Source: Thermoproteota archaeon (GTDB lineage Archaea > Thermoproteota > Methanomethylicia > Methanomethylicales > Methanomethylicaceae). From it: DNA of 64,000 nucleotides. The notes under the pieces were generated by a model. The model was not told the origin of the DNA, did not search any database, and saw only the letters and a list, made by a program, of their open reading frames with translations. The DNA lies in the NCBI GenBank assembly GCA_016882195.1, contig VGLU01000002.1, positions 107,884-171,883 on the forward strand, in the 5' to 3' direction. Shown in pieces: positions 876-48,307 of the stretch. How positions within the stretch are numbered: position 1 is the first letter of the stretch; every line of letters begins with the position of its first letter. The position numbers were made by a program, and so were the translations under genes.

Positions 876-1973
876 CTACCGCTCAGTGCACGCAACGCAG
901 GGGTCAACCGAGAGTAATACAGGCGGTATATCCGCCACCTCATGATCAACCAGCATGGTAACAAGCGCGGGAATATTCGCCAGCGTCGGGGTCCGTATCC
1001 TGCACCGCTCAAGTTTGTTCGTGCCATTGCCCGCGACGTAGTAGAAGAGCTCTCCCCTCGGTTGCTCGATCCTAGTAATCGCCGTGCCTCGGGGAAATAC
1101 CGTGTTCTTCTGCAATATTGGACCATTCGGCATCTGGTTTAGCGCTCTATTTATCAGGTCAATGGACTGGTAGATCTCACCAATCCGCACCAGCATGCGG
1201 GAATAGGCATCCTCCATATCATATACCACAGGCTTGAAATCAAGGTATGAGTAGGCTTCGTAACCCAGGGTGCGCATATCCTGGGGGATGCCGCTCCCCC
1301 TAACGGTTGGACCAACGGCTCCCAGAAGGGAGGTTTTGTTCTTGGGAAGGATCCCCTTACCAACCAATCTTGCCTGCACCCCCCTGTCCTTGACGAAGAC
1401 CGGTGCCAGATTGTCCATTCTCTTCTTCAGCTCGGCGAGGCTGGAACGGTACTCGGCTATCAGCCTATCGTCCATGTCTTTTTTGACACCGCCGATGGTG
1501 CACGTTGACAGTTGGATGCGGTGACCAGCGGTTTTTTCATTCAGCCGCAGTACTATCTCCCGGTCTCGCCAAAGGTGCATGAAGAGGCTCTCGAAGCCGA
1601 TGGAATCCACGAACAATCCCAGCCATAGAAGGTGGCTCTGTAGACGCCCGAGCTCTGACCATATCGTGCGCAGGTACTTCGCCCTCTCCGGCACCTCTGT
1701 GTCCGTTATCATCTCTATCGACTCGCAGTAGGCCATGGCGTGCATGAAGTTGCAAATGCCACAGATCCGTTCACAGAGGGTCACATTCCGTTTGTAATCA
1801 TTCAGCTCACATGCCCGCTCCACAGCTCTGTGGACGTAGCCTATATTCGGGACGACGTCCACGATGCGCTCCCCCTCAAACTTGAACCTTAGCTGCACCG
1901 GCTCGGGCAGAACCGGGTGCTGGGGTCCAAAGGGAATGACGGTATTCACATTAACTACTGTGCCTTCATTCAT
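876..1973 (-). CDS. echE: Ech-type [NiFe] hydrogenase large subunit (NuoD/EchE-like)
   Basis: N-terminal RICGICNFMH and C-terminal DPCVACTER, the two CxxC pairs that ligate the NiFe centre. Probable start MNEGTVVNVN with ATG ending at 1973; the ORF track extends further 5' to 2180. Confidence 0.85.
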   Translation of the reverse strand: MNEGTVVNVNTVIPFGPQHPVLPEPVQLRFKFEGERIVDVVPNIGYVHRAVERACELNDYKRNVTLCERICGICNFMHAMAYCESIEMITDTEVPERAKYLRTIWSELGRLQSHLLWLGLFVDSIGFESLFMHLWRDREIVLRLNEKTAGHRIQLSTCTIGGVKKDMDDRLIAEYRSSLAELKKRMDNLAPVFVKDRGVQARLVGKGILPKNKTSLLGAVGPTVRGSGIPQDMRTLGYEAYSYLDFKPVVYDMEDAYSRMLVRIGEIYQSIDLINRALNQMPNGPILQKNTVFPRGTAITRIEQPRGELFYYVAGNGTNKLERCRIRTPTLANIPALVTMLVDHEVADIPPVLLSVDPCVACTER

Positions 1974-3735: not shown

Positions 3736-3736
3736 T

Positions 3737-4183
3737 TTATCTCCCCTCAACCTTTTTCTTGCCCTTCTCGGCAAGCTTCTGCAGGCCAAGTATGAAGCCA
3801 TCGATGATCTGCTCAGGACGAGCGGCACAGCCGGGCACGTAGACATCCACAGGGACCACCTTATCCACGCCGCCAAGCACGTTCGGGCAGTTGTAGAAGA
3901 CACCGCCTGTGGATCCGCATGAACCCACAACGATTACAACTTTAGTTTCAGGCATCTGATCATAGAGGTTCTTTAGGACTCTGAAGTTTCTTCTGTTCGC
4001 CGGGCCAGTAACAAGCAGCACATCCGCCTGCTTGGGGTTACCTATGTTTATGATCCCAAAACGCTCAACATCAAATCTTGGCGCCAGGGCTGCCAGGATT
4101 TCAATATCGCAACCATTGCAGCTTCCGCAGTTGAAGTGTAGAACCCAAGGGGACTTGACCCTGGCCTTGTTCATTATGTCCAT
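3737..4183 (-). CDS. echC: Ech-type hydrogenase small subunit (NuoB/EchC-like)
   Basis: NCGSCNGCDIE and GSCGSTGG...VYVPGCAARP motifs of NuoB/hydrogenase-3 small subunit. GGAGGGG RBS ahead of ATG at 4181-4183. Confidence 0.8.
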   Translation of the reverse strand: MDIMNKARVKSPWVLHFNCGSCNGCDIEILAALAPRFDVERFGIINIGNPKQADVLLVTGPANRRNFRVLKNLYDQMPETKVVIVVGSCGSTGGVFYNCPNVLGGVDKVVPVDVYVPGCAARPEQIIDGFILGLQKLAEKGKKKVEGR

Positions 4184-4184
4184 C

Positions 4185-5057
4185 TCAGACCCCTCCCAAG
4201 AGAAATAGGGCAACGAGGTTTGCCAAGATCAGCGTGAAACCAAAGGTCCAGGTCGTCTTCAGCATCCTCTGCCACGTAAGTCTAGGATAGATGTTGTCAA
4301 CGACAAGGGAGACGAAGAATAGAAGGAGGGCCAGCCCAACCCCAATTAGTAAGTTCGGTGCCCAGAAGTATGCCATTATAGACAGTATGAGCATCATCTT
4401 GACCCAATGCCCCAGCTCGACCATCGCCATCGTATAGCCAGAGAACTCGGTGAAGACGCCGCGCACTATCTCCTGATGGGCGTGCATAGACGCAGAGATA
4501 TCGAATGGAGACTTCTTCATCTCTACAATAAGCACAAACCCCATGGCGACGAATACCCCGGGAAGAAGCAGGAGCAATGGATATGCCAAGGAGAATATGC
4601 CTCCTACGAGGAAGCTGCGCGTTGCAAAGTAGATGCTGATGATGGACATTATCATAACAGGCTCATATGACAACACCGATAGAAGCTCTCTCATCCCTCC
4701 TATGTGGCTATATGGCGACTTTGAGTTGAAGCTGGCAGCTACTAGGCAGACGTCTGCCGTGGCAACTGTGAATAGCAGCAGTAGTAGATCCAGCCTGAAA
4801 ACCAAAATTGCTGCAGCCATCAGCGAAAAGCCCAAATACCCGAAGGCAAGAACAGGCTGAAACTGGCTGGTGATGAACGGTTTCTTCCCCCAGAGCTTTA
4901 TGACATCATAAAAGGGCTGAAGAACCGGGGGACCGATTCTGCTCTGCATGTGCGCAGTGATCTTCCTATCGATGCCCCTGAGTAATCCTCCAATGAAGGG
5001 AAAGGCCGCCAAGAGCAGCACGGGGAGGGCATAGCTCAATACTGGATCGGGCATCAA
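4185..5057 (-). CDS. echB: Ech-type hydrogenase membrane subunit (NuoH/EchB-like)
   Basis: GIDRKITAHMQSRIGPP motif of the NuoH/HycD family; multi-TM protein. Confidence 0.8.
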   Translation of the reverse strand: MMPDPVLSYALPVLLLAAFPFIGGLLRGIDRKITAHMQSRIGPPVLQPFYDVIKLWGKKPFITSQFQPVLAFGYLGFSLMAAAILVFRLDLLLLLFTVATADVCLVAASFNSKSPYSHIGGMRELLSVLSYEPVMIMSIISIYFATRSFLVGGIFSLAYPLLLLLPGVFVAMGFVLIVEMKKSPFDISASMHAHQEIVRGVFTEFSGYTMAMVELGHWVKMMLILSIMAYFWAPNLLIGVGLALLLFFVSLVVDNIYPRLTWQRMLKTTWTFGFTLILANLVALFLLGGV

Positions 5058-7015
5058 AACATCACCATCAAAAACAGTAGCGCCAACAGTAGCGTCCCTC
5101 CAACCAGAGCGTATTTGTTCAAACGCCCCTCGCCTATTGAATCGAAGGACATTACGGAGACCTGAAATTCGGCCTCTGTGTCAGCCATAGTCCTGAACGC
5201 CGAGGGGTTACCCTCAACGTTCTCCCCTCCCAAGAAGGGCGGTTTCACAACGCCGCCCTTAGATTTTGCTACCGCAAAGCCAGCGATGAAAATAACCCCT
5301 ACTGCAAGCCAAAAAAGCAAGACTGGGAATGAGCCGATGGTGGTGTTTATGCTGAACAGCGGAGCCCCGATTTGAACAGAATAGCCTCCTCCAACGGTTG
5401 GGTTAACGAGATTGCTGATAAAGAAGGCTGCACCCACGCTGATGAAAAGATCTAATGACAGCAAACTCAGCAGAGAGAGCAGATAGGGGGGATGAAGTTT
5501 TTCGGCCCTCAGTTTCGTTTCTTTTACGGGAAGAATTATGAGACGTCCCAACCACCTTGCCCAGAAAAGAGTTGTAGTAGCGCTACCGATGACCATAAAA
5601 ATGATTAATAAAAATACTATTGAAGGCGGTGATGAAGCGATAACTTCCAGAGCCGCCCACTTACCGAGCAGCATGCCGAATGGGGGCAAGAACATGCTTA
5701 TCATCCCAACAATCATTATGATCGCTGTCAGCGGAAACCTTCCCAGAAGCCCCTCCCAACTCTCTATGTTCTGGCTGTGCAACCGGTTCTCAACCACGCC
5801 GGCTCCCATGAATAACAACCCTTTCGAAATTGCGTGAAATAGAAGCAGGATTAGTGCTGCCGAGTACGCTAGCGGCGTGTTTAATCCTGCGCACAATATG
5901 ATTAGACCGAGGTTGCTGATTGTGGAATAGGCTAGAATTCTCTTGGAACCCCTTTGGCTAATCGCCAACACCGCTGTTAGCATGAAGGTAAAAGCACCCA
6001 CGAGGACGACGGCCCACGTTAAATGAGTGTCCTTGATCGCGGGTGCGATCCTCAAGATCAGATAGACACCGGCATTCACCATCGTGCTTGCGTGGAGGAG
6101 AGCTGAGACCGGTGTGGGGGCAACCATTGCGCCCAGAAGCCAGCCATGAAATGGGAACTGGGCTGACTTTGTGAATGCCGCCAATGCCATAAAGGCGAAG
6201 CTGAGCAGGAGTATGGGCGCCGCGCCGGCCATGAGCAGTTCGTTAAGGGCTATGCTTCCAATGGCGTAGTAGCTAACGAAAAGCGAGGCGCTCAGGGCGA
6301 CCCCCCCCGTGAGATTCATCCAAAGGGCAACCGCGGCATTTTTCTCGGCCTCCTTTGTCCTATCGTGTCTTATGAGTTCATAGCAGCAAAGAGTAGTAAC
6401 CTCCCAGAAGAAGGCTAGCCAGAGGATATTGTTGGAGTATATTAGGCCGTTCATGGCACCAAGGAAGAGCAGCAGGAAGAAGAAAAACCTGGGTTGCCTG
6501 CTCCTCGAAAGCTGTAAAATTTCTTCATGTTCATCCATGTAGCTCAGAGCATAGACGCATATCATAGAACCCACAATGTTCACAATCAGGCTCATGAAAA
6601 TGGAGAGGTTGTCCACCATCAGAGCTGGCTCGACACTGACTCCAATTGCGGAATACTCGAAGTATGCGACGAGCAAGATCTGTAGCAGAGTAAGTCCGAT
6701 TACCAAGACGTTCTTTATCCTGAACCCTACATACAGAAAGTATGCTACCAAACAGAAGCCGAGGATAAGTGCACTCATCTCAACTAGGTAATTTGGAGAG
6801 TAGACGAAACCTCCACTGTAGAACAGCAGAAGAGAAGAGGCGATTAATGAGGCGGCCATGATGGCGATTATGGCTCTTCTGATGCCTCTCCCAGTTAGTC
6901 CTAGGCATGCTAACCCCATGATCAAGGGCAGGAGCACGTTTGTTGCTACAATGAGTTCGCCATACATCCAAACAACACCGAATAATTTGAAATGTCTATA
7001 CCGTTCTTTACACAA
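5054..7015 (-). CDS. echA: Ech-type hydrogenase antiporter-like membrane subunit (NuoL/MnhA/EchA-like)
   Basis: 653-aa polytopic membrane protein with NuoL/Mrp-antiporter-like helices. First gene of the ech operon. Confidence 0.75.
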   Translation of the reverse strand: MCKERYRHFKLFGVVWMYGELIVATNVLLPLIMGLACLGLTGRGIRRAIIAIMAASLIASSLLLFYSGGFVYSPNYLVEMSALILGFCLVAYFLYVGFRIKNVLVIGLTLLQILLVAYFEYSAIGVSVEPALMVDNLSIFMSLIVNIVGSMICVYALSYMDEHEEILQLSRSRQPRFFFFLLLFLGAMNGLIYSNNILWLAFFWEVTTLCCYELIRHDRTKEAEKNAAVALWMNLTGGVALSASLFVSYYAIGSIALNELLMAGAAPILLLSFAFMALAAFTKSAQFPFHGWLLGAMVAPTPVSALLHASTMVNAGVYLILRIAPAIKDTHLTWAVVLVGAFTFMLTAVLAISQRGSKRILAYSTISNLGLIILCAGLNTPLAYSAALILLLFHAISKGLLFMGAGVVENRLHSQNIESWEGLLGRFPLTAIIMIVGMISMFLPPFGMLLGKWAALEVIASSPPSIVFLLIIFMVIGSATTTLFWARWLGRLIILPVKETKLRAEKLHPPYLLSLLSLLSLDLFISVGAAFFISNLVNPTVGGGYSVQIGAPLFSINTTIGSFPVLLFWLAVGVIFIAGFAVAKSKGGVVKPPFLGGENVEGNPSAFRTMADTEAEFQVSVMSFDSIGEGRLNKYALVGGTLLLALLFLMVMF

Positions 7016-7055: not shown

Positions 7056-7292
7056 TCACTTCTTACCCAAGATCTTTGGACCTGGGGGAACCGTCCCGGG
7101 ACCTACAATGGAGTTGGTGACTATGGCGAAGCTCGTATACGCTGCGCACCCGGCGGTGAGGAAGCCGATGTAACCACCCAGTTGCGTCAGGCCTGCGTTT
7201 GCGAAGCTCAGCAGGAAGGCCGTGAATGCGAATGCCGCCAGCCCGAGCGGTGCTGGGTCGGCCAGTGGAGCCTTCTCCATTGGGCTACTCAT
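7056..7292 (-). pseudogene. Truncated SatP/YaaH (GPR1/FUN34) acetate-transporter-like ORF, 78 aa versus ~190 aa expected
   Basis: ADPAPLGLAAFAFT matches the N-P-[AV]-P-[LF]-G-L-x-[GSA]-F family signature, with N replaced by D. Only about 2 TM helices, then a Pro/Gly-rich tail. The downstream echA starts at 7015, so there is no room for the remaining helices. Confidence 0.45.
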
Positions 7293-9259
7293 TACTTAGT
7301 CGCCCCCATCTCCTCTATACTGCGCATTTCGGCCTTGAACTCTTCATAAGCCTTCTTTGCCTCTTCCACGCTGGTTGCGTCCTCGAGCGTCGTTGTATCA
7401 CCGATGCTCCTTTCTTCTACGACCGCCCCTATTACCCTCCTCATTATCTTGCCGCTGCGGGTTTTTGGCAGTTTGTTGACAAAGTAAAGCGACTGTGGGG
7501 CAGCTATCGGTCCGATGCTCTGCCTAATGTGGTTAACAAGCTCGGTTCTCAATTGTGGTGAGGCAACATGCCCCGGCCTGAGTATGACAAAGGCAACAGG
7601 GACCTGCATCTTTATCGGATCAGCCTTACCTATTACTGCAGACTCCGCCACGGCGGGGTGCGATATCAGTGCATCCTCCAGCTCGATGGTCCCGATCCTG
7701 TGACCTGCCACCTTGAGCACCTCATCTGCCCTGCCTAGTAGCCAGAAGTAGCCGTCCTCGTCCTTCATGGCGAAGTCTCCAGGGTAGTAGAAGCCAGGGA
7801 ACTTGGTGAAGTAGGTGCTCTTGAACCTCTCGTGGTCGCCCCACAGGGTTATGAACTGGCCTGGCCATGGCTTCCTTATCACGAGCAGCCCCTTCTCGTT
7901 GGGCTTGGCTATCCTTCTATCCTCGGTGTACACATCAGCGTCCACTCCCGGCAAGGGGAAGGTGGCTGAACCCGGTTTGAGCGGGACGAGTGCAAGACCA
8001 GGCTGAGGGGTGATCATGATCCCGCCCGTCTCGGTCTGCCACCAGGTGTCGACTATTGGGGTCCTTTCGCGACCTATGTACTTGTAGTACCAGTTCCATG
8101 CCTCGGGGTTGATGGGCTCGCCGACGGTACCGAGTATCCTGAGGGTGGAGAGGTCGTGTTTCTTAGCCCACTCCTCTCCGTACTTCATGTGCATTCTTAT
8201 TGAAGTGGGGGAGGTGTAAAAGATGGTGATTCCGTACCTCTCAACCATGTCCCACCACCTGTCTGGATGGGGGTAGTCGGGAGCACCCTCGTATAAGAAA
8301 GAGGTGACGCCGCTGATCAATGGACCGTAAACGATGTAGGTGTGACCGGTGATCCAACCGATATCTGCGGCGCACCAGTAAATGTCTTTGTCATTTACGT
8401 CAAATACCACCTTCTGGGTGAAGTCGGCCCAAACCATGTAACCCGCGGTGCCGTGCGTGGCCCCCTTCGGCTTCCCAGTTGTACCAGAGGTATAAAGGAT
8501 GAAGCTGGGGTGTGTCCCCTCAAGCCTCTCGGGCTCAACGTATGGGTCGGCGGACCCGACCAATTCGTGGTACCACATGTCTCTATCCTCCACCATGTTG
8601 ATCAGGTTGTGCCCTCTCCTCACAGCCAAGACCTTCTCTACTGTAGTGGTATGCTTGAGCGCTTCGTCCACGACCGCTTTGAGCTCAACGGTTTTGCCTC
8701 GCCTGTAACCTTCGTCAGCCGTTATGATCATTTTACTCTGTGAGTCGTTGACTCTATCAGCGATTGCCTGGGAGGTGAAGCCCGCGAATATAACGGAGTG
8801 GATCGCCCCAATCCTGACAGCCGCGAGCATACTGATCACCAACTCAGGGATCATGGGCATATATATCGTCACCCTGTCTCCCTTCCTTACCCCAAGCCTC
8901 TTGAGGATCGACGAAAACCTGTTTACTTCTCTGAATAGATCATAGTAGGTTAGAGTCCGCTTGTCTCCATTCTCTCCCTCCCAGTAGAAGGCCACCTTGT
9001 TCTTTCTCCAACTCCCCACATGCCGGTCCAATGCGTTGTATGAGATGTTTGTCCTCCTTATCGGGAACCACTTGGCGTATGGAGGCTCATCGATGGGCTG
9101 ATACGCGGGGCCATTTTTTTCGTACCAGAAGAGGTCATCAGCAAATTTCTGCCAGAAGGTCTCTGGGTCCTGTAAACTCTGCTTATGAACATCCTTCAGG
9201 ATGTTTACATCGGGATGAATAGTCCTCGATGTGGGCAGGACACCTAAAATTTTATCCAA
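7292..9259 (-). CDS. acs: Acetyl-CoA synthetase (AMP-forming)
   Basis: YTSGTTGKPKG, WWQTETGG, YYPGDFA and PKTRSGKIMRR motifs; 655 aa. Confidence 0.9.
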   Translation of the reverse strand: MDKILGVLPTSRTIHPDVNILKDVHKQSLQDPETFWQKFADDLFWYEKNGPAYQPIDEPPYAKWFPIRRTNISYNALDRHVGSWRKNKVAFYWEGENGDKRTLTYYDLFREVNRFSSILKRLGVRKGDRVTIYMPMIPELVISMLAAVRIGAIHSVIFAGFTSQAIADRVNDSQSKMIITADEGYRRGKTVELKAVVDEALKHTTTVEKVLAVRRGHNLINMVEDRDMWYHELVGSADPYVEPERLEGTHPSFILYTSGTTGKPKGATHGTAGYMVWADFTQKVVFDVNDKDIYWCAADIGWITGHTYIVYGPLISGVTSFLYEGAPDYPHPDRWWDMVERYGITIFYTSPTSIRMHMKYGEEWAKKHDLSTLRILGTVGEPINPEAWNWYYKYIGRERTPIVDTWWQTETGGIMITPQPGLALVPLKPGSATFPLPGVDADVYTEDRRIAKPNEKGLLVIRKPWPGQFITLWGDHERFKSTYFTKFPGFYYPGDFAMKDEDGYFWLLGRADEVLKVAGHRIGTIELEDALISHPAVAESAVIGKADPIKMQVPVAFVILRPGHVASPQLRTELVNHIRQSIGPIAAPQSLYFVNKLPKTRSGKIMRRVIGAVVEERSIGDTTTLEDATSVEEAKKAYEEFKAEMRSIEEMGATK

Positions 9260-9436
9260 TACTCATCACCCTTATCTTTTACCGGCGGTTGCCGGACTCA
9301 GACTTTGTGTCGGCAATTTTCGCATCCGAAGCCTTCTGTTTACAGAACAGCAAAATTTCGTTTAATCGTAGGTACATTTCCTTTGCCATAGGTCGAACCC
9401 TGCGTTGTCATACTATATAAACGTTTTCTGCAATTT

Positions 9437-9456
9437 ATAATTATAAATAATTACAA
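9437..9456. promoter_or_regulatory. Tandem direct repeat ATAATTATAA-ATAATTACAA in the divergent acs / usp-actP promoter region
   Basis: Two abutting copies of the 10-mer ATAATTAYAA. The same pair recurs at 14175-14200. Confidence 0.4.
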
Positions 9457-9587
9457 TCATTGATAATGTTTATATACTCAAAGAAATACGCTTTTCGGTA
9501 CTATGACTAAGAACGTATTTCCAAAATTAAGTGTATTCTTTCCATTAATAAGGAGAGATTACCTGATTAAAGAGGCGGCAAAAGTCT

Positions 9588-10325
9588 ATGGCTAAAGGAG
9601 CATATCGTATCCTTTTACCGACCGATGGCTCCATTCCTGCCCTGGCAGCGACAAAACATGCGGTGGAGCTGGTAAAGAAGATGGGCGGGCGGTTGATAGT
9701 GCTTACGGTAAAGGAGCCGAAGCCGATGATGCCGCTGGAGAGGCTGGCAGAGGACACAGTCCTGATGAGAGCCGAGAGGTTCGATGGGATCGAATACGCC
9801 AAGAGGCTGGCGGACCAGGAGAATGTAGCCATCGAGCTGCAGATCCGAGAGGGTTCTGTGGCGGGCGAGATAATCAAGACCGCGGAGGAGCTGGATGTGG
9901 ATATGATTGTCATGGGAAGCTCCAACCCCAAGGGGCTTTCTGGCTTCTTCTTGGGGCACATCGCCGACGCTGTGATCAAGGCTACGCCCATCTCGGTAAC
10001 GGTCATCAAGCCCAACCAAAAGGACATCCTTTCAATTAAGGAAAATGCACGCGCCTTCATAGTACCGACCGTGGAGCCGGTGGCTCCGAGGGTCGGAGAC
10101 GGGATGAAATTCAAAGTTGGATTGGCACTCTTCTTTGCGTACGCACTTGGATACATGGGCTACACCGTTTTGGGCGCCTTCAATAAGGCGATTCTGTCCA
10201 TAAGGTTAATGGGAATAAACTTGGGCCTCATCGGCGGGATGACATTGATCTTTTCAGCAATACTGATAGCGGTCATGTACAATTGGTACGCCAGCCGACT
10301 GGAAAAACGATCGGGGATTGCTTGA
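9588..10325 (+). CDS. Universal stress protein (UspA) domain fused to DUF485/YjcH-like two-TM membrane domain
   Basis: N-terminal USP fold (ILLPTDGS...MIVMGSS...GHIADAVIK). C-terminal two helices and YNWYASRLEKR resemble YjcH, the small protein that precedes actP in bacteria. Overlaps the next ORF by 8 nt. Confidence 0.6.
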   Translation: MAKGAYRILLPTDGSIPALAATKHAVELVKKMGGRLIVLTVKEPKPMMPLERLAEDTVLMRAERFDGIEYAKRLADQENVAIELQIREGSVAGEIIKTAEELDVDMIVMGSSNPKGLSGFFLGHIADAVIKATPISVTVIKPNQKDILSIKENARAFIVPTVEPVAPRVGDGMKFKVGLALFFAYALGYMGYTVLGAFNKAILSIRLMGINLGLIGGMTLIFSAILIAVMYNWYASRLEKRSGIA

Positions 10326-11811
10326 TATGGATTATAGCTTCCAGCCGCTTGCATTTGCACTATTCGTAGTGATCACAGCGATAACCCTCTTTATCTCGGT
10401 GCTGGCAGCACGCAGAATACGGACGGCAAGCCACTATTACGTCGCAGGTGGAGGCGTGAAGTGGTTTGTGAATGGGATCGCCTTCGCCGGGGACTACCTT
10501 AGCGCAGCCTCGTTTCTTGGAATAGCCGGGTTGATCGCCTTCTTCGGTTTTGATGGATTCATGTACTCCATCGGCTTCCTTGCTGGGTGGATAGTTGCGC
10601 TGCTGCTGATTGCAGAGTCGTTCCGGCGAATCGGCAGGTTCACGCTCGCGGATGCACTAGTACACCGGTTCAAGAGCAAAAGGGTTCGACTCGCCGCGGC
10701 CGTGAGCACCCTTACGGTCAGCATCTTTTATCTGATCCCGCAGATGGTTGGTGCCGGTTCGATAATCCAACCGTTGATAGGCCTACCATACGAGGTTGGG
10801 GTGGTTGTCATCGGTGCCATCGTCATCCTAATAGTTGCGACTGCTGGAATGGTCTCCACAACCTACGTGCAGTTCATCAAGGGCTTTCTGCTTCTGTTCG
10901 CCGCGTTCGGTCTGACAATCGGGGTATTGATCGTTTCGGGCTACGGACCAGTTGACTTCGTCTCTAACATAATCTCGAATCCAGAGATTGTGACACCTAA
11001 GGGTGCCGTGGTCTCAGGAGAGGTCTTCATGTCCCCAGGTTTGAAATTTAAGAACCCTCTGGACTTTGCGTCCTTGGCGCTTGCCCTCTTTCTGGGCACG
11101 GCGGCACTCCCACACATACTCATTAGATACTACACGGTGCCTAGCCCCTCAGATGCCAGGAAGTCCACGGTAATAGCGATAGGCGCCATAGGGGCATTTT
11201 ACATACTGACGTTATTCCTCGGTCTGGGTGCCCTATACTTCCGCACGTTCGATCCCGCAAATGAGAACCTGTCCGCACCATTGCTGGCGCAGTTCATAGG
11301 TGGCGAGGCCTTCTTTGCGCTGATCTCCTCCATAGCCTTCGCGACCATACTCGGGACGGTGGCCGGTCTCCTAATGGCCGCAGCGGGCGCCATAGCCCAC
11401 GACATATATACCGAATATCTTGGCAAAAATAAAAGGGGAACCAACACCCTCAGAATATCAAAAGTTACGGCTGTAGGTGTAGGAGTCATAGCAATTGTCT
11501 TGGGCGTTCTTTCCAAGGGTCAGAATGTTGCCTTCCTTGTGGGTCTGGCCTTTGCCATCGCCGCCTCCGCGAACCTGCCTGCCATAATATGTGTGCTGTT
11601 CTGGAGCAAGACGAGTGAACGGGCTATCCTCGGGGGCATCGCTACTGGCCTCATATCCTCCATAGCCCTAATCCTTGTCAGCCCCACATTGATGGGAACC
11701 AGTGCACTGTTCGCATTGAACAACCCGGGGATCGTGAGCATACCCCTTGGGTTTGCTGTGACAATTGTGGTTTCACTCTTGGATGGCAAGAAGGGGCAGC
11801 AAGCAAAATAA
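10318..11811 (+). CDS. actP: Sodium:solute symporter family, ActP-like cation/acetate symporter
   Basis: 497-aa SSS-family protein (YYVAGGGV...GDYLSAASFLG). Gene order DUF485-ActP as in bacterial yjcH-actP. Confidence 0.75.
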   Translation: MLDMDYSFQPLAFALFVVITAITLFISVLAARRIRTASHYYVAGGGVKWFVNGIAFAGDYLSAASFLGIAGLIAFFGFDGFMYSIGFLAGWIVALLLIAESFRRIGRFTLADALVHRFKSKRVRLAAAVSTLTVSIFYLIPQMVGAGSIIQPLIGLPYEVGVVVIGAIVILIVATAGMVSTTYVQFIKGFLLLFAAFGLTIGVLIVSGYGPVDFVSNIISNPEIVTPKGAVVSGEVFMSPGLKFKNPLDFASLALALFLGTAALPHILIRYYTVPSPSDARKSTVIAIGAIGAFYILTLFLGLGALYFRTFDPANENLSAPLLAQFIGGEAFFALISSIAFATILGTVAGLLMAAAGAIAHDIYTEYLGKNKRGTNTLRISKVTAVGVGVIAIVLGVLSKGQNVAFLVGLAFAIAASANLPAIICVLFWSKTSERAILGGIATGLISSIALILVSPTLMGTSALFALNNPGIVSIPLGFAVTIVVSLLDGKKGQQAK

Positions 11812-12048: not shown

Positions 12049-13056
12049 TTAGACGAAGACTCCTGTGAATATCTGTGTAGCGTAGATAGCGATCCATGTA
12101 GTTACGCAAAAAGGCAACGTTAACGCAGGCATCTTATAGGGTGCGTAAATAGACATTATAGCTGCCATTATCAATGTGGAGACTATTATGAAGAAGATGG
12201 CATAAACAAGGTTTATCGGATTTAAGGTGTAAAATACGCCAAAGAGTGCTAAGGCTGTTAACACGCCGTTATACCCAAAGATGCCATGATGTACGGCTTG
12301 CTTGTCTGCTCTTAGTCCTATTGCTGTTAACGTGCCAATAACTGATCCCATAAGTGCGACCACGCCGCCTAGTCCTAATGGGAAGCCTACGTTTGTAGTA
12401 CCTCCGGGTATATGGCTGTAGCTCCATGGATAGAGGAAGTAACCGCCCAGCGTGAGGCCTATAAAGAAAACTATGCCTGTTAGCCAGTGGTCCGAGAACA
12501 TTACTTGACTCATACCACGAAAAGCTGTTTTGACGCATTCGGCAGCAGTCCACTTCTCCTCCATTGTTGGCCAAGGCATCCACCATCCAAAATCGCCCAC
12601 ATTGAGTTTTCCAAAGCCGTGAAGGACGCCTCCAGCACCAACAGCCCATAGAAGAAGCATTGTTGTAATGTTGAATGGACCTGTTAAAGCAGGTAGTCCC
12701 CATGGGACGAAGAATCTTGTCAGAAAGACCATAACTACCGCTGAGAGGGCGGTACCGAATAGTGTGTAAACAACGCTACGTTTTGATGGCTTTATAAACA
12801 GCCACAATGCTGTAGCGGTTAGCTCGCCGTTGAACCCGAATAAGCCGAAGGTAACCCACCAATTATTTCCGCCGATAGCTATCCCTACAAGAGTTGCAAC
12901 AAGTGAACCGATAAACCCCCAGAGTGCCAAGCGCCTTGAGTAGATTGCTAGACCTACGAGGAAGAGAACACCCGTGATGGCGCTGTCATGGAACTGCACT
13001 TGTCCTATTCCTTTGAATATGGAGTCTATAAATTCAATGAAGTTTATAGTTATCAT
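12049..13056 (-). CDS. Urea-transporter (UT) family-like amide/urea channel
   Basis: 335-aa polytopic membrane protein with an internally duplicated architecture and LFGFNG-type motifs. Sits immediately downstream of the amidase, as in fmd/ami loci. Confidence 0.5.
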   Translation of the reverse strand: MITINFIEFIDSIFKGIGQVQFHDSAITGVLFLVGLAIYSRRLALWGFIGSLVATLVGIAIGGNNWWVTFGLFGFNGELTATALWLFIKPSKRSVVYTLFGTALSAVVMVFLTRFFVPWGLPALTGPFNITTMLLLWAVGAGGVLHGFGKLNVGDFGWWMPWPTMEEKWTAAECVKTAFRGMSQVMFSDHWLTGIVFFIGLTLGGYFLYPWSYSHIPGGTTNVGFPLGLGGVVALMGSVIGTLTAIGLRADKQAVHHGIFGYNGVLTALALFGVFYTLNPINLVYAIFFIIVSTLIMAAIMSIYAPYKMPALTLPFCVTTWIAIYATQIFTGVFV

Positions 13057-13108: not shown

Positions 13109-14101
13109 TTAGTCGCCTGGTGGTTTCGTTGTAGACCTTGTTACGGCTTCGGACATCTTTCTTGCCTTGTCAACGTCTGTAATCCACGTCTTGTAGAAGT
13201 CGTATGGGCACTCGCTAACGTATCCTGGGCTTTCTCCTGCCGATTCGTATGCCGTGTAACCTCTGTGGAGTAATTTGAACAGCGTGTTGCTAGCTGTCCA
13301 GTTTCTCCTCGCATCCCTTATCGTCTGAAGCGAGAGTTGGGCGTATCCAACTTCGTCTGGGCTTGCCTCGAGTTCTGTTAAGACGTGGCCATCAAAGTCA
13401 ACGATGTTTGAGTGCCCGAAGTAGTAGTAAGTTCCATCCCAGCCAGCCATGTTTGCAACGGCTACGTAGGCAGTGTTCATCCAAGCCATTACTGGTGGGA
13501 TCGCGCGCTGTTGATCCTTCGACGGATACATGTAACCCTGGCATCTAACGATGAGTTCTGCTCCTTTCATTGCACAGTCTCGCCAGATTTCAGAGTAGTC
13601 TCCGTCGTTGCATATTATAAGGCTGACCTTCAGTCCTTTCGGACCGTCAGATACGAATGTTCGGTCCCCTGGCCACCAAGGCTCTATTGGAACCCAAGGT
13701 ATTATTTTACGGTATTTCTGAACGATCTTTCCTCGGTCATTCATTAGAATCAGTGTGTTGTATGGGTTCTTCCTCGGGTGGTCCTCGTGGAGTTCGCCAG
13801 TTAGCGAGAAAACACCCCAGACTTTATTGTCTTTGCAGCCCTCTGCAAAGATGTCAGTCTCCTCGCCGGGGCAAGTTGTGGATAGCTCCTTCCACTTTTT
13901 AGGGTTGAACCCTTGGGTGCTGTATTCTGGGAAGATCATTAGATCCAAGCCAGGCATTCCAGCCTTAGTCCCTGAAATAAAGCTGTTTATGCGTCGGCAG
14001 TTGTCTAGCACTTCCTGCTTAGAATTTACTACTGGCACTCTGTAGTTGCAGACTGCTGTACCTACAGTTGTTTTCGATGACGAAATATCTCCTTGTACCA
14101 T
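13109..14101 (-). CDS. amiE: Aliphatic amidase / formamidase (AmiE/AmiF, nitrilase superfamily)
   Basis: Near-collinear similarity to Pseudomonas AmiE from memory: [60 protein letters not shown]. Confidence 0.85.
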
Positions 14102-14200: not shown

Positions 14201-14330
14201 ATCTATCCATGAGTGCACGCTGAGAACGGGGAATAACCACGCGACGAGGATCTTTATCGGCTCCAATCACTCCCATGAGAAAGCACCTATATAGACGGCA
14301 CTCTCAAGAAATGTCTGGAGGCGTTCATGC

Positions 14331-17300
14331 ATGGCATGCGCCGGCAGTAAAAGTCCTCCAAGGCTCGGTCGTGGAACGCACCTTGCTTATATTGCGCCCC
14401 TATTCCTTCTCTTCATAATCTCATTTACGGTCCTGCCCCCTAACCAAGTATTAGTTAGCTGCAACCCGAACGTATCCGCCTCAGAATCAGGTATCATTGC
14501 AAGATATACTGTTGAGATAACTCCTGCCGGGGCGGCCAAGCACGAGGTAAGCGTAAAGGCGGTGATCTCTCTCGGTGTAGCGACCGACCTTACGGTCACT
14601 TCACCAGATCAGGGGTTCAAGGCAAGGTGGATCACCATAGAGAAGTGCTACGACAGCACCAACAGGACAGTCTCGATCGAGCAGGTTGACAACAGGACAT
14701 GGAGGGTGTCTCCCCCCTCCCCCGGCGAGGTCACAATCGAGTACACCGCGTGCGCCGACATACCCAGCTCCATGGCGGTGGGATATTACCTGACGTACCT
14801 CTCGGAGAGCTGTGGGCTGCTGTACGCCAGCGCGATAATTCTCCGCCCGCCCACTCAGGGCGAGGTCGCGGTCAACTTTATAATGCCGTCCGGCTGGTCT
14901 GTAATAGCCGACGAGACGTGGTCTCCTGTCAACTCCACTGCCTTCACCGTCGGGACTGGTGACTTGGAGCTATTCGCCCCTGGCAACTGGTCCGTCTACA
15001 ACGGTACCTTCGGCGACAGCCAGAGGCTAAGGGTCGCGATCTGCGGGACGACAAAGCATGACAAAGGCGTTTACCTCAACAGCATAAAGACATGCTTGGA
15101 CTACTTCCACCAGCACATCGGGAAACTTCCCCAAGAGGAGCTCAATGTGGTGCTAGCAGACCTCCCTCTGCCCATGGACTACATGAGCGGGACGCCGAGG
15201 CTGGCCGTGAACCGCGCCGGCGGTGACTGGGGGATGTTCGAGGGGATGCTCTGGCACTACTGGTTCTTGAGATCGGTGCGCTACGACAGCCAGCTCGACC
15301 AGGACAGGGCGTGGTGGTTCGGCGAGGCGGCGAGCCCCTTCCTGCTCTATCCAGTCTATGAGGCGATAGGGGGGGCTTCGGAAGTCGCGACCGCCTGGGG
15401 CTTCAAGTACAATAACCTCACCTGGAAGAACTGGTACGTGGTGTACGAACAGTACGTAGGAACCAACTACAACATACCACTGGTGGACTACCCGGCGAAG
15501 AACAGGGAGACAGGCGACGTGCAGTACTACTTCCCATTGCCCTACATGAAGGGGTTCTTGGTGTTGCAGATGCTCAACCTCTCGATGGTAGAGGTGACCC
15601 ACGGTACCAAAGACATAAGGGATCTCGTGAAGTACATCTACGAGAACTACGCGGCGAAGGGCATAGGCTACAAGATCGAGGACGTCCTCAATGCGGTAAA
15701 TACCGTGTCCGGAAATAACTACACGGCATTCTTCGAGGCCTACGTATACGGTAATGAGACGCTGCCCATTCTGGAGAAGAGCGGTGACTACCTCTTTGAC
15801 TGGTCGACGTTGGGCGACAAGGCGTACAGAAGCCTCGCAAACACAGAGAAGGCACGGCCTACGCCCCAATATTGGCACGGTCAGGCCCCAGAGGGAGAGA
15901 CGGCAACACTCTTGGAGATGAAGAAGGAGAGCCAGCACTTCACGATCTACTTCCACCAGCAGGATGCTAAGATGGCTGCTCTCCTCCTGTTGGACTCCGA
16001 GAAGGCCTACGATGCCGTCACAAAGATCTATGGAGGCGAGGAGAAGCTCAAGATCAAGATGTTCATGACCTACAACAGTACCGAGTACGCCATACTCGGG
16101 GGCAACCCCAGCGCGGTCTACGACGAGTTCACAAGCGCAGGCGGGGTGGCGGTGGAGGCTGGCGACGAGATAAACTGGCTCAGGCCCATCCCAGACAGAA
16201 CGCAAACGCAGATGTATGATGTGGCAGCCCCCATCCACGAGCTGGGGCACGCCCTCCTGCGCCAAGTTTACCCCAACGTGTACAAGAACTGGGAGCAGTG
16301 GTTCAATGAGGGGATGCCCCTCTCCGAGATGGCATGGCTCGACAGCATGTGGGCTCCAGAAAGCTACTCCCCCTTCGGCGACCATGAGCCCATAAGGCAA
16401 CTTCAGACCTCGCTGATAGGCGGTTCGCCGTCCGTCATAGCGTTAACCCAGCTGGCGAAGATGGACTACGGCTCACTCAACTCCTCCGAGCAGCTACTGT
16501 TTCAGGGGGAGGGCATAACCTTCCACTTCTACATAGTGGCTAGGTACGATAATGGCCTGCAGAGGTTGCTCACTGAGTACAACAGAAGCGTGCCGCTCAG
16601 CATGGCCGCGGAGAGGGCCTTCGGAATAACCTACACAGACCTTGAGAGTGAGCTGTGGGTCACGGCGGAGAGGGCGGCTCTCCGTGTAAACTCCACCGAT
16701 GCGGTCGTCTCAAGAATAAACGGCGAAGGGGTGGACACCGGGCTTGCCGAGAGTTTGAAGCCAGAGGAGCCCTTCCTTGCGTTGCTGGTCGCGTATGCGT
16801 CGGAGACGAAGGCTGGCGTCGGTCCTGAAAAGGTGTTGTTGGGAACCATAGTTCCAGGTAGTTGGACGAGAGCAGACCTGCAAAAGACCGCAATAACGTC
16901 GCTGAACGTGAGTTCAACACAAACAGCCGCGAATGTAACGGTCTTGGTCCAAGAGGTGACGCCTGATGAGATGCCGGCAACCGCTACCGGCGAGGTTTAC
17001 CGGTACATCGAGATGACGGCGAGTGAAGGTGTTGGCCCCGCCATGATAACGTTCAAGGTTGCTAGGGCATGGGTAAACGAACACAGCACGAACAACGCAT
17101 CCATCACCTTAGAGAGGTACGTCTCAAACGATTGGGTCTTACTTTCCACCAAGAAAATCGGTGAAGACGGCGCGTACGCCTACTTCTCCGCGGAATCGCC
17201 GGGGCTGTCAACCTTCTCCATAGCCTCTGTTTCGCCTGCTGATCTGATACTGCCAAACAAAAAGGAGACGGCACACTTCATCTTTTATTTCAACACAACA

Positions 17301-19169
17301 TCTCAAGACTTCGTTGATCAATACAGCAACATCGCAGAAGGCGGCTTCTCCGGATTAGAGGTGATATTTGGCAACCTCTCAGAAAAAATAAAGGTTTACC
17401 TTTGCGAAACCGTTGAGGAGTTCCAGACCACCTCGGGGGGCTCGACGCCGCCAAATTTTGATGACAAGGTTGCGGCGGGGCAGTGTGTTGATGGAAAGGT
17501 TCAGATCTATAAGCCCACCCAGTTCTTTCCGGAAGATTATGCTATCGGCCTTCTTCACGAGATCGGTCACGCAGCATATTGGCAGCTTTATCCAACCGCC
17601 CTTGTTAAGAATAATTGGCTTAATGAAGCCTTGGCGGCGCAATCCATCAGCGGTTCAACCATCAGTTACGTCTGGGATGATGAGGTGAAGGCCGCTTTAG
17701 AGAATGGTACTTTCATACCGCTGGCGACACTTGAGAGTAATGGAGTAAGGAACGCGACTACGGAACACGGAATTAACGGCCCAGAGTACATCTCGCTGGT
17801 CAGCTTCATAGCGGGGGAGTTCGGCTTTGATAAGCTTCGCTCGGTTCTAACCTACTACAACGGGAGCGATAACATGGTCTCCTCCATAGAGAAGGGCACG
17901 GGCGTCAGCGCCGCTGTCTTTGAGCAGCGGTGGACGGCGAAGATAAGGTCCTACACCGCAGGAAACGTAACCGTGCCCACGGTAATAGAGAGCTGGGTCT
18001 CGAAGGAGCAGTTCGGTCAACCGGCGACCGCCTTCCTTCCCTCGGACGGGATATACGTCATGGTACGGAATAACGCCGAGAGCGACGATCAACCACTCGT
18101 AACCGTCCGCTTGGTGGATTCCTACGGGAATAGACTGATCGAGAGGTCATACAACGTACCTGGGCGGCACGGCACGACCGGGTTTGGCGACTATAACCCC
18201 GGGCGGTACATGACGCTTGGCATTTACCGTGTGGAGATCTGGAGCGGCGGCTCTCTGTTGCAGTCGATTGCGATATCCGTATCCACCGTAACAGCTGATA
18301 CCACGCCGCCCACCATAACCATAATCTCACCTGCAAAGGACAGCCTCCTGCAGACCAACTCCGTGTCGGTTAGCGCCTCCTACTCGGACAATGTGGGGAT
18401 TGACGTAAACTCCGTAACTATGAAGATAGACGGAGCGACCGTGACCCCCACCAAATCGCCGAATGGGGTAGAGTACACTGCCCTCCTCTCCGAGGGATCG
18501 CACACCGTTTTCCTCTCCGTGGCGGACACATCTGGCAATACTGCGGTGGCGACCTGGTCATTTACCATAAGCCTGTCATCATCCCAACAAGGTTCCCGCT
18601 GTATAATCGCCACATCGACCTATGGCTCAGAACTTGCACCCCAGGTCCAGTTCCTGAGAGAGTTCAGGGACAACCTTGCGCTAAAGACATTTGCTGGTAG
18701 CAGCTTCATGATGGTCTTCAACGCGTGGTACTACTCTTGGAGTCCTCCTGTTGCTGCCTCGATCGCACCAGATCCTTCCATCAGGGCCGTAATGCGCGTC
18801 ATCCTCCAGCCCCTTCTGAACATCCTTGAGCTGGCCGTGGCTACGTTCTCACTCTTCTCCTTCAATAGCGAACTGGGCATAGCGGTTGCTGGCATAGTCG
18901 CCTCCTCGCTGATAGGGCTCGTCTACTTCATGCCCGCAACCGTGCTGGTTCTCACCACGTTCTGCAGGCGCCGCGGCTCTGTTCCGCCGGTCAGGAAGAT
19001 CACGTTCTTGGTCGTGCCGTGGGCGGCGAGCCTCGTCCTGATCCTAGTGAGCGAGTTCGCCTCGTCGCAACTCCTGATGATGGTGGCTACTGGCACCCTC
19101 GTACTGTCGACAATAGCCCTCGTAGCAGGGGCAGTCTCGCTCGGGATAGCCCGCTATCTGCGGCGGTAA
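14331..19169 (+). CDS. Giant (1612 aa) secreted, membrane-anchored surface glycoprotein with two tandem M1-like gluzincin metallopeptidase motifs
   Basis: N-terminal signal/anchor. HELGHALL...(16 aa)...WFNEGMP and HEIGHAAYWQ...(15 aa)...WLNEALA fit HExxH-x18-E of peptidase family M1. More than 20 N-x-S/T sequons. Ig-like Ser/Thr-rich segment (TTPPTITIISPAKD...). C-terminal CIIATSTYGSELAPQVQFLREFRD motif followed by four or more hydrophobic helices. Confidence 0.7.
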   Translation: MACAGSKSPPRLGRGTHLAYIAPLFLLFIISFTVLPPNQVLVSCNPNVSASESGIIARYTVEITPAGAAKHEVSVKAVISLGVATDLTVTSPDQGFKARWITIEKCYDSTNRTVSIEQVDNRTWRVSPPSPGEVTIEYTACADIPSSMAVGYYLTYLSESCGLLYASAIILRPPTQGEVAVNFIMPSGWSVIADETWSPVNSTAFTVGTGDLELFAPGNWSVYNGTFGDSQRLRVAICGTTKHDKGVYLNSIKTCLDYFHQHIGKLPQEELNVVLADLPLPMDYMSGTPRLAVNRAGGDWGMFEGMLWHYWFLRSVRYDSQLDQDRAWWFGEAASPFLLYPVYEAIGGASEVATAWGFKYNNLTWKNWYVVYEQYVGTNYNIPLVDYPAKNRETGDVQYYFPLPYMKGFLVLQMLNLSMVEVTHGTKDIRDLVKYIYENYAAKGIGYKIEDVLNAVNTVSGNNYTAFFEAYVYGNETLPILEKSGDYLFDWSTLGDKAYRSLANTEKARPTPQYWHGQAPEGETATLLEMKKESQHFTIYFHQQDAKMAALLLLDSEKAYDAVTKIYGGEEKLKIKMFMTYNSTEYAILGGNPSAVYDEFTSAGGVAVEAGDEINWLRPIPDRTQTQMYDVAAPIHELGHALLRQVYPNVYKNWEQWFNEGMPLSEMAWLDSMWAPESYSPFGDHEPIRQLQTSLIGGSPSVIALTQLAKMDYGSLNSSEQLLFQGEGITFHFYIVARYDNGLQRLLTEYNRSVPLSMAAERAFGITYTDLESELWVTAERAALRVNSTDAVVSRINGEGVDTGLAESLKPEEPFLALLVAYASETKAGVGPEKVLLGTIVPGSWTRADLQKTAITSLNVSSTQTAANVTVLVQEVTPDEMPATATGEVYRYIEMTASEGVGPAMITFKVARAWVNEHSTNNASITLERYVSNDWVLLSTKKIGEDGAYAYFSAESPGLSTFSIASVSPADLILPNKKETAHFIFYFNTTSQDFVDQYSNIAEGGFSGLEVIFGNLSEKIKVYLCETVEEFQTTSGGSTPPNFDDKVAAGQCVDGKVQIYKPTQFFPEDYAIGLLHEIGHAAYWQLYPTALVKNNWLNEALAAQSISGSTISYVWDDEVKAALENGTFIPLATLESNGVRNATTEHGINGPEYISLVSFIAGEFGFDKLRSVLTYYNGSDNMVSSIEKGTGVSAAVFEQRWTAKIRSYTAGNVTVPTVIESWVSKEQFGQPATAFLPSDGIYVMVRNNAESDDQPLVTVRLVDSYGNRLIERSYNVPGRHGTTGFGDYNPGRYMTLGIYRVEIWSGGSLLQSIAISVSTVTADTTPPTITIISPAKDSLLQTNSVSVSASYSDNVGIDVNSVTMKIDGATVTPTKSPNGVEYTALLSEGSHTVFLSVADTSGNTAVATWSFTISLSSSQQGSRCIIATSTYGSELAPQVQFLREFRDNLALKTFAGSSFMMVFNAWYYSWSPPVAASIAPDPSIRAVMRVILQPLLNILELAVATFSLFSFNSELGIAVAGIVASSLIGLVYFMPATVLVLTTFCRRRGSVPPVRKITFLVVPWAASLVLILVSEFASSQLLMMVATGTLVLSTIALVAGAVSLGIARYLRR

Positions 19170-19181
19170 CCTCATTTCAGA

Positions 19182-19574
19182 TCAGATGGGCTTGTCCTTT
19201 GCCTTCAGAAGGAGCCACTGCCTCTCTCCCGCCTTCTTGAATCTGGTAAGCACGTACCTACCATGGAGTCTATCGCCACTTAGAACGAACTCTATCGTGT
19301 CCTTGCTCCAGACCAGCGGCTCATAGGAGCCCTTGTCCCATATCCTCACGGTCCCTGCTCCGTACTGCCCCTCTGGTATTGTCCCCTCAAACTCCCTGTA
19401 TTTTAATGAATGGTCCTCGACCTCGATGGCAAGCCTCTTCTCGCCGGGCTCTTCTGGGAGACCTTTCGGGACAGCCCAGCTCTTGAGGACCCCTCCCTTC
19501 TCCAGCCGGAAATCATAGTGGAGCCTCCTGGCATGATGCTCGTGTACAACAAAGGATCTTCCTTCCACCTTCAT
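19182..19574 (-). CDS. Standalone LigD-type 3'-phosphoesterase (PE) domain protein
   Basis: HHARRLHYDFRLE signature and ~130 aa size, as in archaeal standalone PE proteins. Confidence 0.75.
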   Translation of the reverse strand: MKVEGRSFVVHEHHARRLHYDFRLEKGGVLKSWAVPKGLPEEPGEKRLAIEVEDHSLKYREFEGTIPEGQYGAGTVRIWDKGSYEPLVWSKDTIEFVLSGDRLHGRYVLTRFKKAGERQWLLLKAKDKPI

Positions 19575-42118: not shown

Positions 42119-42124
42119 GTCGCT

Positions 42125-43234: not shown

Positions 43235-43283
43235 TGCCGCTCACACGGGATAAATTGTCCTGTCTACCTATTAATCGTTTGAG

Positions 43284-43982: not shown

Positions 43983-44036
43983 CCCTTCTCGCGTCAGGGA
44001 GATTCTCTATCCGATCTTATTTATAAAAAAGGCGTT

Positions 44037-46303: not shown

Positions 46304-46362
46304 CGCTTAAAAGATGTCGGCGTATACCCTTAAATACATTCTTTAACTCTACCTTTTACAAT

Positions 46363-47382: not shown

Positions 47383-47451
47383 AAGGCATTTCTAACTCAT
47401 TACACGCGAAAGGCCTTGCCCCTAAAGTTTGGTCATTAACCAGCGCTGGCT

Positions 47452-48192: not shown

Positions 48193-48307
48193 TTATTCGA
48201 CCACACGAGAATGGTACTATTAAATCGCATTTTAAATATATCGGTTTAAGAAATTACGGCAATTTTTGTAGTTTTCCCACGTCCGTAACGTGTATGCCAT
48301 CTTGAAA

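Follow-up and report, generated by a model that had tools for sequence, protein, structure and literature searches.

The 64,000-nucleotide stretch of archaeal DNA analysed here (the window; contig VGLU01000002.1, positions 107,884 to 171,883) carries a complete open reading frame (ORF) for a protein of 1612 residues. The product is identical to NCBI entry MBM5804820.1, labelled 'PGF-pre-PGF domain-containing protein [Candidatus Verstraetearchaeota archaeon]'. The host is a methane-producing archaeon of the Verstraetearchaeota (Methanomethylicia), recently recognised methanogens outside the Euryarchaeota whose cell envelope and nutrient acquisition are, to our knowledge, almost unknown. We resolve the protein into an M61-like N-terminal module, two gluzincin domains with a PGF-pre-PGF domain between them, an unnamed and an immunoglobulin (Ig)-like domain, and a helical membrane module headed by a CFI-box-CTERM domain (Table 1).

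Each of the parts (MA-clan gluzincin, M61-like fold, PGF-pre-PGF, Big_7 and CFI-box-CTERM) is of a known kind, and the novelty lies in their combination and not in a new kind of system. New are the core of this rare family, in which a probable M61-like pseudo-peptidase is joined to a gluzincin of the Peptidase_MA_2 type; the documented lineage-specific insertion of a second protease domain; and the recognition of a 'CTERM' domain as the head of a large, abundant membrane module for which Foldseek found no relative in the PDB.

Eighteen relatives of the protein were found among 5.8 billion clusters, and all family counts given below as parts of 19 refer to the query together with these relatives. 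The metagenome-assembled genomes (MAGs) that hold them belong to Ca. Methanomethylicales/Methanomethylicaceae and Bathyarchaeia, and the full architecture recurs in independent assemblies (P0001 and P0002). Compared with a 91%-identical gene at locus L006, the ratio of non-synonymous to synonymous substitution rates (dN/dS) is 0.18 overall and 0.09-0.32 across the domains, below 0.35 in each (0.11 in gluzincin domain 1, 0.30 in domain 2 and 0.09 in the CFI-box domain). Because dN/dS is low in every domain, we conclude that the whole architecture is under purifying selection. The synonymous divergence in this comparison (L006 44-4876 against window positions 14331-19166) is a strong mosaic, which suggests between-strain recombination within the gene: dS is 0.67 for gluzincin domain 1, as against 0.09 for domain 2 and 0.13-0.14 for the C-terminal module.

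Table 1. Features of the gene and of the encoded protein, in window coordinates; residue numbers refer to the 1612-residue product.
Feature	Position	Strand	Basis and details
Candidate archaeal TATA-like box, TATATA	14288..14293	+	38 nucleotides upstream of the ATG; read from the sequence alone, a lead only
ORF	14331..19169	+	Complete, ATG start, 1612 residues and stop
N-terminal export signal (predicted), residues 1 to ~50	14331..14480	+	Hydropathy: basic n-region K7, R11, R14; hydrophobic core, residues 15-45
M61-type N-terminal beta-sandwich domain, residues ~55-238	14493..15044	+	Pfam; all-beta in the AF2 model; Foldseek
M61/M1-like thermolysin-fold 'catalytic' domain with degenerate zinc site, residues ~240-520	15048..15890	+	Foldseek, profile
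Gluzincin domain 1 (Peptidase_MA_2 type) and helical extension, residues ~528-830	15912..16820	+	HELGH at 16236-16250, Glu660 at 16308-16310
PGF-pre-PGF beta domain, residues 851-965	16881..17225	+	NCBIfam TIGR04213, 85.1 bits, cut-off 28
Gluzincin domain 2 (Peptidase_MA_2 type), residues ~966-1217	17226..17981	+	HEIGH at 17556-17570, Glu1099 at 17625-17627
Unnamed domain, motifs 'GWVS…FG…GDYNPG', residues ~1218-1320	17982..18290	+	Alignments
Ig-like putative stalk domain (Big_7 / Big_13 / HYR-like), residues 1327-1413	18309..18569	+	Pfam; Thr-rich linker before it
CFI-box-CTERM domain, residues 1424-1495	18600..18815	+	Cys1424, IATATxGSE, VQFLRxFRD, FMxxFNAWYYSFSP
Membrane part of the C-terminal module, residues 1496-1612	18816..19166	+	End of hydrophobic helical hairpin and three firm transmembrane helices

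Three peptidase-like modules and the domains between them

Exactly two HExxH motifs occur in the 1612 residues, 440 residues apart. In domain 1, HELGH (residues 636-640) is followed after 16 residues by WFNEG, with Glu660 lying 19 residues past the second His; in domain 2, HEIGH (1076-1080) is followed after 15 residues by WLNEA, with Glu1099 18 residues past the second His. The domain-1 residues H636, E637, H640 and E660 are invariant in 19/19 sequences, down to 36% identity, and none of the five domain-2 sequences departs from the equivalent H, E, H and E. An AlphaFold 2 (AF2) model of residues 40-850, built on the 19-sequence family alignment (predicted local distance difference test, pLDDT, 83.5; predicted template modelling score, pTM, 0.78), places the domain-1 HExxH on a helix that comes after a beta-sheet and before the helix with the Glu, as in zincins. 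The BLASTP alignment of the two domains (23% identity over 272 residues, E 3e-9) indicates that they are homologous.

Both domains resemble PF13485 (Peptidase_MA_2), uncharacterised gluzincins of clan MA, in combining HExxH with a downstream Glu in W-x-x-E. The Pfam model matches 13 of the 19 domain-1 family members (best E 3.6e-11) and four of the five domain-2 sequences (best E 5.5e-7). The HExxH regions of the query align to model positions 43-108 and 71-199 with 16.7 and 19.0 bits for each domain alone and 28.2 bits summed, the cut-off being 32.4. The protein differs from this family in carrying two such domains behind an M61-like module on a membrane-anchored chain, and PF13485 has no characterised member from which a function could be transferred.

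The original prediction, made without database searches, had read the two motifs as duplicated M1-type domains about 430 residues apart. Two complete HExxH…W[FL]NE motifs, and with them two metallopeptidase domains of gluzincin type on one polypeptide, are indeed present, as are the HExxH-x18/19-E spacing and the W[FL]NE context; the assignment to M1 did not survive. A regular-expression search of the 1612 residues found no G.MEN, [GA].MEN or MEN, Pfam Peptidase_M1 (PF01433) matched no segment of the query even at E<=10, and the same model matched one of the 19 family members (E 0.0011). Domain searches returned for the query a weak Peptidase_MA_2 match, together with Big_7 and CFI-box-CTERM. 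Even the M1-like spacing, present in the query, is longer by about 20 residues in distant family members, where the stretch between HExxH and Glu contains an insertion. M1 enzymes such as ERAP1/2, IRAP and tricorn-interacting factor F3 share the clan, MA(E), and a similar HExxH-x18-E spacing, and they are secondary Foldseek matches of the model (E ~1e-14 to 1e-12), but with template modelling scores (TM-scores) of about 0.3 and root mean square deviations of 22-27 Å; moreover, the HExxH domains of the query are much smaller and have no M1 N-domain.

The M1/M61-like fold of this protein lies elsewhere, in the N-terminal ~500 residues, which the original prediction had overlooked. Peptidase_M61_N (PF17899) matches residues 105-191 (24.0 bits in the whole protein and 26.8 in the segment, cut-off 23) and 14 of the 19 family members. 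The three top Foldseek matches in the PDB are M61 structures (7xyo, E 7.5e-17, TM-score 0.61 on the target; 4fgm, 3.4e-16; 8j9c, 3.1e-14), which share the two-domain fold, and they are followed by the M1 enzymes IRAP, ERAP1/2 and F3. A profile of residues 225-525 also matches 4fgm by sequence (E 7.7e-5) and aligns WWFGEG with LWFYEG, from which it follows that Glu332 (WWFGEA in the query) corresponds to the third zinc ligand.

At the position of HExxH, the query reads G305-M-L-W-H309, in a helix F-E304-G-M-L-W-H309-Y-W-F that is found in all 19 sequences. All 19 lack the catalytic Glu and the first of the zinc-binding His residues, and H309 is presumably the second His, as judged from the M61 motif (HExxHxW…) and the order of helices in the model. 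No HExxH occurs in residues 1-635, and E304, G305, W308, H309, Y310, W328, W329 and E332 are invariant in 19/19. The N-terminal ~500 residues are probably an M61-like pseudo-peptidase with a degenerate zinc site; their identity to the M61 structures is only 12-14%, and in contrast to these they are fused to further peptidase domains. We do not class the 1612-residue protein as an active M61 peptidase because the catalytic domain of this module has no HExxH. Its very high conservation argues that a binding function has been kept, and the module may well be a non-catalytic platform for peptides or other substrates.

The second gluzincin domain raises the question of its origin. Apart from the query, only P0001 and P0002 have it (3/19); 16 of the 18 relatives lack it, and in these PGF-pre-PGF leads directly into the next domain. 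Its nearest relatives are stand-alone proteins of 322-425 residues with signal sequences and 48-60% identity, namely P0139 (425 residues, 60%), P0140 and P0141 (both 322 residues, about 55%) and P0142 (347 residues, 48%). Given the 23% identity between domains 1 and 2, the absence of domain 2 from 16/18 relatives and its stand-alone nearest relatives, we conclude that it is a lineage-specific domain insertion and not, as the original prediction had it, a tandem duplication. The peptidase domain alone was inserted, since the domain that follows it in the query is 85% identical to that of the insert-free ortholog P0003 and only 49% identical to its equivalent in P0139. The G+C content of third codon positions (GC3) around residues 900-1200, 0.54-0.67 as against 0.75-0.86 in the core, gives modest support to a separate history of domain 2.

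P0139 itself was considered as the direct donor and rejected, as the GC3 of its gene is 0.74 against 0.54-0.67 in the insert and its downstream domain is too dissimilar. The protein (L005, 6001-8786; CAYUMT010000012.1) comprises a signal sequence, the peptidase, a 'GWVS…GDLNPG' domain and a transmembrane (TM) helix. Its gene lies directly upstream of a gene for monomethylamine methyltransferase (MtmB), and on account of this neighbour we assign P0139 to a methylotrophic methanogen.

TIGR04213, the PGF-pre-PGF model, matches 12 of the 19 family members. The unnamed domain at residues ~1218-1320, for which Pfam gave no match, is probably a beta-sandwich judging from its sequence; it directly follows PGF-pre-PGF in the relatives that lack domain 2 and follows the peptidase in the stand-alone P0139. 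Big_7 matches residues 1327-1393 with 32.4-37.7 bits (cut-off 24.1), in agreement with the Ig-like, Thr/Ser-rich segment that had been predicted. The copy number of this Ig domain varies, from two in P0004 to none in P0002, P0005, P0008 and P0009.

The C-terminal membrane module

The tail of the protein opens with a Cys motif, CIIATSTYGSELAPQVQFLREFRD, which begins at Cys1424 and heads a CFI-box-CTERM domain (NCBIfam NF041770; 68.3 bits, cut-off 40, model positions 1-68 of 69). All 120 aligned homologs of the module match NF041770, and the query shares with this domain the invariant Cys, the ATA-x-GS and LR-x-FRD motifs and the strictly C-terminal place. Whereas the NCBIfam model describes the first 69 residues, here they form the head of a helical module of ~190 residues that continues for 117 residues further. 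AF2, run on the 120-sequence alignment, predicts an all-helical structure of eight helices (pLDDT 94.9, pTM 0.88), with pLDDT of ~95 in the CFI-box domain and 95-98 in the membrane helices. Foldseek found no similar structure in the PDB (best E 2.2).

Four hydrophobic segments follow the motif (Kyte-Doolittle >1.6), at residues 1486-1510, 1513-1546, 1554-1588 and 1579-1611, and firm TM helices can be placed at residues 1513-1546, 1561-1577 and 1580-1611. A hairpin in the outer leaflet, or a re-entrant one, is the most likely arrangement of the helices at 1454-1478 and 1482-1508. Across the family, the loop after the long TM helix (residues 1546-1556) has a mean of 5.6 Lys and Arg residues and the C-terminal tail 1.7, as against about 0 in the other loops; by the positive-inside rule, the predicted topology is N-out/C-in with this basic loop and the tail in the cytoplasm. 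The best conserved stretches are the CFI box, the helix FMxxFNAWYYSFSP and the long first TM helix (E1514, G, LIG, Y1532), and the last two TM helices are variable. Cys1424 is invariant in 107/107 sequences.

The module is widespread. Searching with residues 1415-1612 returned 441 proteins, many with 90-100% query coverage including the TM helices, and a profile search of 1.84 billion cluster representatives gave 23,511 matches at E<=1e-3, 12,515 at <=1e-10 and 2,107 at <=1e-30. The profile included ~100 upstream Ig-like columns, and the weaker counts may hold proteins that match those columns alone; at least 2107 clusters (E<=1e-30) share the ~190-residue form that extends past the NF041770 model. 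In each of the best 150 matches listed, the match reaches the protein C-terminus to within a few residues. The named sources are all archaeal (Bathyarchaeota, Thermoproteota and Verstraetearchaeota), and the ectodomains carried on the module elsewhere include Big_3_5 (Ig) repeats, CBM96, CarboxypepD_reg, transglutaminase-like and MG2 domains. Several module fragments bear the Joint Genome Institute (JGI) label of a peptide/nickel substrate-binding protein.

Much of what the original prediction said of this tail can be kept: a Cys motif followed by at least four hydrophobic helices agrees with the four segments above, three of which hold firm TM helices by hydropathy; a similar module does occur in other archaeal surface proteins and has a name, CFI-box-CTERM; and the tail is not a standard single-helix PGF-CTERM anchor. 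It can hardly be called unusual, given that it is a named domain whose full multi-helix form is common. As in PGF-CTERM substrates of archaeosortase A, the query is a sequon-rich surface protein with a TIGR04213 domain. In contrast to these, its ORF has no PGF tripeptide and no single-helix tripartite tail, at least three TM helices are present, and its PGF-pre-PGF domain is central, 460 residues away from the anchor.

Within the protease family, the tails are exchanged between orthologs. P0001-P0009 carry the CFI module, and single-TM tails stand in its place in P0010-P0018: P0010 and P0011 end in PG[YN]P, a TM helix and a basic tail, resembling PGF-CTERM, and the distant members P0012, P0014, P0015 and P0018 end in 'FPWPL' (FPWPL(L/V)), one TM helix and a Lys-rich tail. 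This swapping of tails is our best evidence that the module tethers or sorts the ectodomain, and the unrelated ectodomains that it carries elsewhere also speak for a role as anchor. A PGF-CTERM label for P0010 and P0011 was not confirmed by NCBIfam, and we call these tails PGF-CTERM-like only. NCBIfam has nothing for the 'FPWPL(L/V)' tails, which could represent another unnamed archaeal C-terminal anchor or sorting motif.

One ortholog is split exactly within the CFI box. At L007 (8001-12092; JAULTD010000002.1, a Methanomethylicaceae MAG), P0007 (1185 residues) ends in '…CIIATATYGSEIAP' and a separate 165-residue ORF, P0020, begins with 'MKTFAGSSFM…'. The cause may be a frameshift or an assembly error, or the split may be real.

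Proposed surface proteolysis and alternative functions

The basic and then hydrophobic N-terminus is consistent with export, and in the AF2 model pLDDT is below 50 at residues 40-53 and the first strand begins at residue 55. The protein has 23 N-X-S/T sequons, compared with 11.2 ± 3.0 in 1000 shuffles (z ~4), all of them within residues 47-1212 and none in the last 400 residues. A similar excess (z ~3-5) is seen in the closer relatives and not in the distant ones. Both the roughly 25 sequons and the large surface polypeptide of the original prediction are therefore upheld, the latter by the hydrophobic signal, the sequons and the TM tail.

A lipobox-like 'LVSC' at residues 41-44 (14451-14462), at the end of the signal sequence, is common to the closest relatives P0002 and P0005. 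An N-terminal lipoprotein was rejected as the Cys is absent in P0006, P0008 and P0009, and from this distribution 'LVSC' is probably not a conserved lipidation site.

Positions 42000-59500 of the window form an island of genes for glycosylation or surface polysaccharides, with a G+C content of 0.43-0.49 as against 0.53-0.58 elsewhere in the window. Its products are a GT4 enzyme (46363-47382) and several GT1-type transferases, two DegT/DnrJ aminotransferases, a UDP-glucose/GDP-mannose dehydrogenase and a B12-binding radical SAM enzyme (53740-55143). We count this glycosylation capacity in favour of an N-glycosylated surface protein; the evidence that the island (~42-59 kb) could supply glycans to surface proteins such as this one is circumstantial.

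We favour, with moderate confidence, the interpretation that the protein is a permanently anchored, probably N-glycosylated extracellular zinc metalloprotease of a Verstraetearchaeota archaeon. The N-terminal signal would export an ectodomain of ~1370 residues, in which the M61-like two-domain module may serve as the substrate-binding platform. Domain 1, with its invariant HELGH…E, would be the ancestral catalytic centre of the family, and the inserted domain 2 would add a second active site, presumably of another specificity, and broaden the range of substrates. The unnamed and the Ig-like domains could act as a stalk, and the CFI-box module would tether the whole by its three TM helices in N-out/C-in orientation, with conserved helices that are amphipathic or re-entrant and with its Cys placed at the membrane interface. 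Such an enzyme might degrade extracellular proteins and peptides for uptake, or else process envelope proteins.

Several observations weigh against this interpretation. The PF13485 score of the query stays below the Pfam cut-off. Sequence searches of the PDB, run with the complete protein and with profiles of the family and of domain 2, retrieved no solved structure related to either HExxH domain; the one match, 4fgm, belongs to the N-terminal module. The case for domain 2 is sequence-based, and that for domain 1 draws on sequence and on a multi-domain model. Our literature search on the Methanomethylicia envelope, PGF-pre-PGF, PF13485 and M61 structures brought nothing usable, no biochemistry for family members or PF13485-type domains and no paper describing CFI-box-CTERM. 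The gene neighbourhoods of the relatives are unconserved and give no hint at function. Finally, the conserved polar residues and the invariant Cys of the module exceed the needs of a passive anchor.

Instead of a permanent anchor, the module could be a signal for sorting or processing, comparable to PGF-CTERM with its archaeosortase, and the TM helices would then be discarded. Cleavage would take place at or near Cys1424 and the ectodomain be covalently linked to a lipid or envelope component, or the module would process itself by an N-to-S acyl shift where the small residue meets the Cys. We regard this as unlikely. In its favour, the invariant Cys usually comes after a small residue or after a linker of Ser, Gly or Pro; the CFI box and the first helices are the most conserved and the last two TM helices poorly so; by the name '-CTERM' the curators placed the module among sorting signals; and P0010 and P0011 have PGF-CTERM-like tails in its place. 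However, tripartite signals measure ~25-35 residues, whereas eight packed helices over ~190 residues are predicted here with high confidence, and an all-helical module is unlike Hint or other self-processing folds. Nor does a partner enzyme stand beside any family member examined, and the literature search was silent on such a process.

Two further explanations concern the peptidase modules. The protein could be a non-catalytic structural envelope protein or adhesin, its three peptidase-like modules being binding scaffolds and its HExxH motifs relics, as has evidently happened to the zinc site of the highly conserved N-terminal module; archaeal envelope proteins typically carry Ig-like and PGF-pre-PGF domains, and the NCBI label names only the latter. 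A relic motif should drift, as the N-terminal one did, yet the catalytic and zinc-binding residues of domain 1 are invariant throughout the family at a dN/dS of 0.11, and neither domain 2 nor its stand-alone relatives show any change at these positions; we therefore think a structural role improbable. The pair of tandemly duplicated M1 aminopeptidase domains of the original prediction seems to us very hard to sustain: the spacing and the W[FL]NE[GA] context are like those of M1, and M1 enzymes are among the Foldseek matches, but those matches belong to the N-terminal module that has no HExxH, GxMEN and PF01433 are absent from the query, the spacing is unconserved in distant relatives, and domain 2 came by insertion.

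If the favoured interpretation is right, a protease anchored at the surface and equipped with two active sites would give direct evidence that Methanomethylicia degrade proteins or peptides outside the cell, and the family core would pair a dead aminopeptidase scaffold with a live protease. An answer to the question of anchor or processing signal would have a larger payoff than the protease motifs, as it would clarify the display of many archaeal surface proteins. More speculatively, and with rather low probability, the ~190-residue module may be an autonomous device for anchoring or processing surface proteins in Thermoproteota and related archaea. Its conserved polar residues (E, Q, R, R, D, N, Y, Y, S, S, E and Y), hydrophobic hairpin and three TM helices could then serve the invariant Cys in attaching or handing over ectodomains, perhaps by lipidation, thioester chemistry or covalent coupling to the envelope. 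In that event, one module would be at work in a great many different surface proteins.

Gene neighbourhood and other genes of the window

Scanning the window revealed no further genes with a CFI box or HExxH…W-x-x-E besides the 1612-residue ORF. A divergent CN-hydrolase gene lies upstream and a convergent LigD_N phosphoesterase gene downstream, from which we conclude that the gene is monocistronic. The downstream neighbour (19182-19574, reverse strand) encodes a stand-alone LigD_N 3'-phosphoesterase of 130 residues, and the same arrangement is found at L006. The neighbourhoods of the relatives were searched for a partner that is conserved, for example a transporter or an enzyme like a sortase, and none was found, the neighbours differing by lineage: proBAC and LigD_N for the query, CRISPR adaptation genes at L007, an M28 peptidase at L008 and CoA-biosynthesis genes at L009. 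The L007 ortholog lies among Cas6, Cas2, Csa1, Cas1 and Cas4.

Positions 876-7015 of the window (reverse strand) carry a module resembling complex I or a membrane-bound hydrogenase, which includes an unusual 653-residue fusion of Complex1_30kDa, Fer4_20 and pyridine-nucleotide-disulphide oxidoreductase (1966-3930) beside genes for a 49-kDa/NiFe large-subunit-like protein, NADHdh and Proton_antipo_M. An acetate uptake and activation cluster follows (7292-11811), consisting of an acetyl-CoA synthetase (7292-9259, reverse strand), a fused Usp and DUF485 protein (9588-10325) and an ActP-type SSF symporter (10318-11811). Adjoining this cluster are genes for a urea transporter (12049-13056) and the CN-hydrolase (13109-14101).

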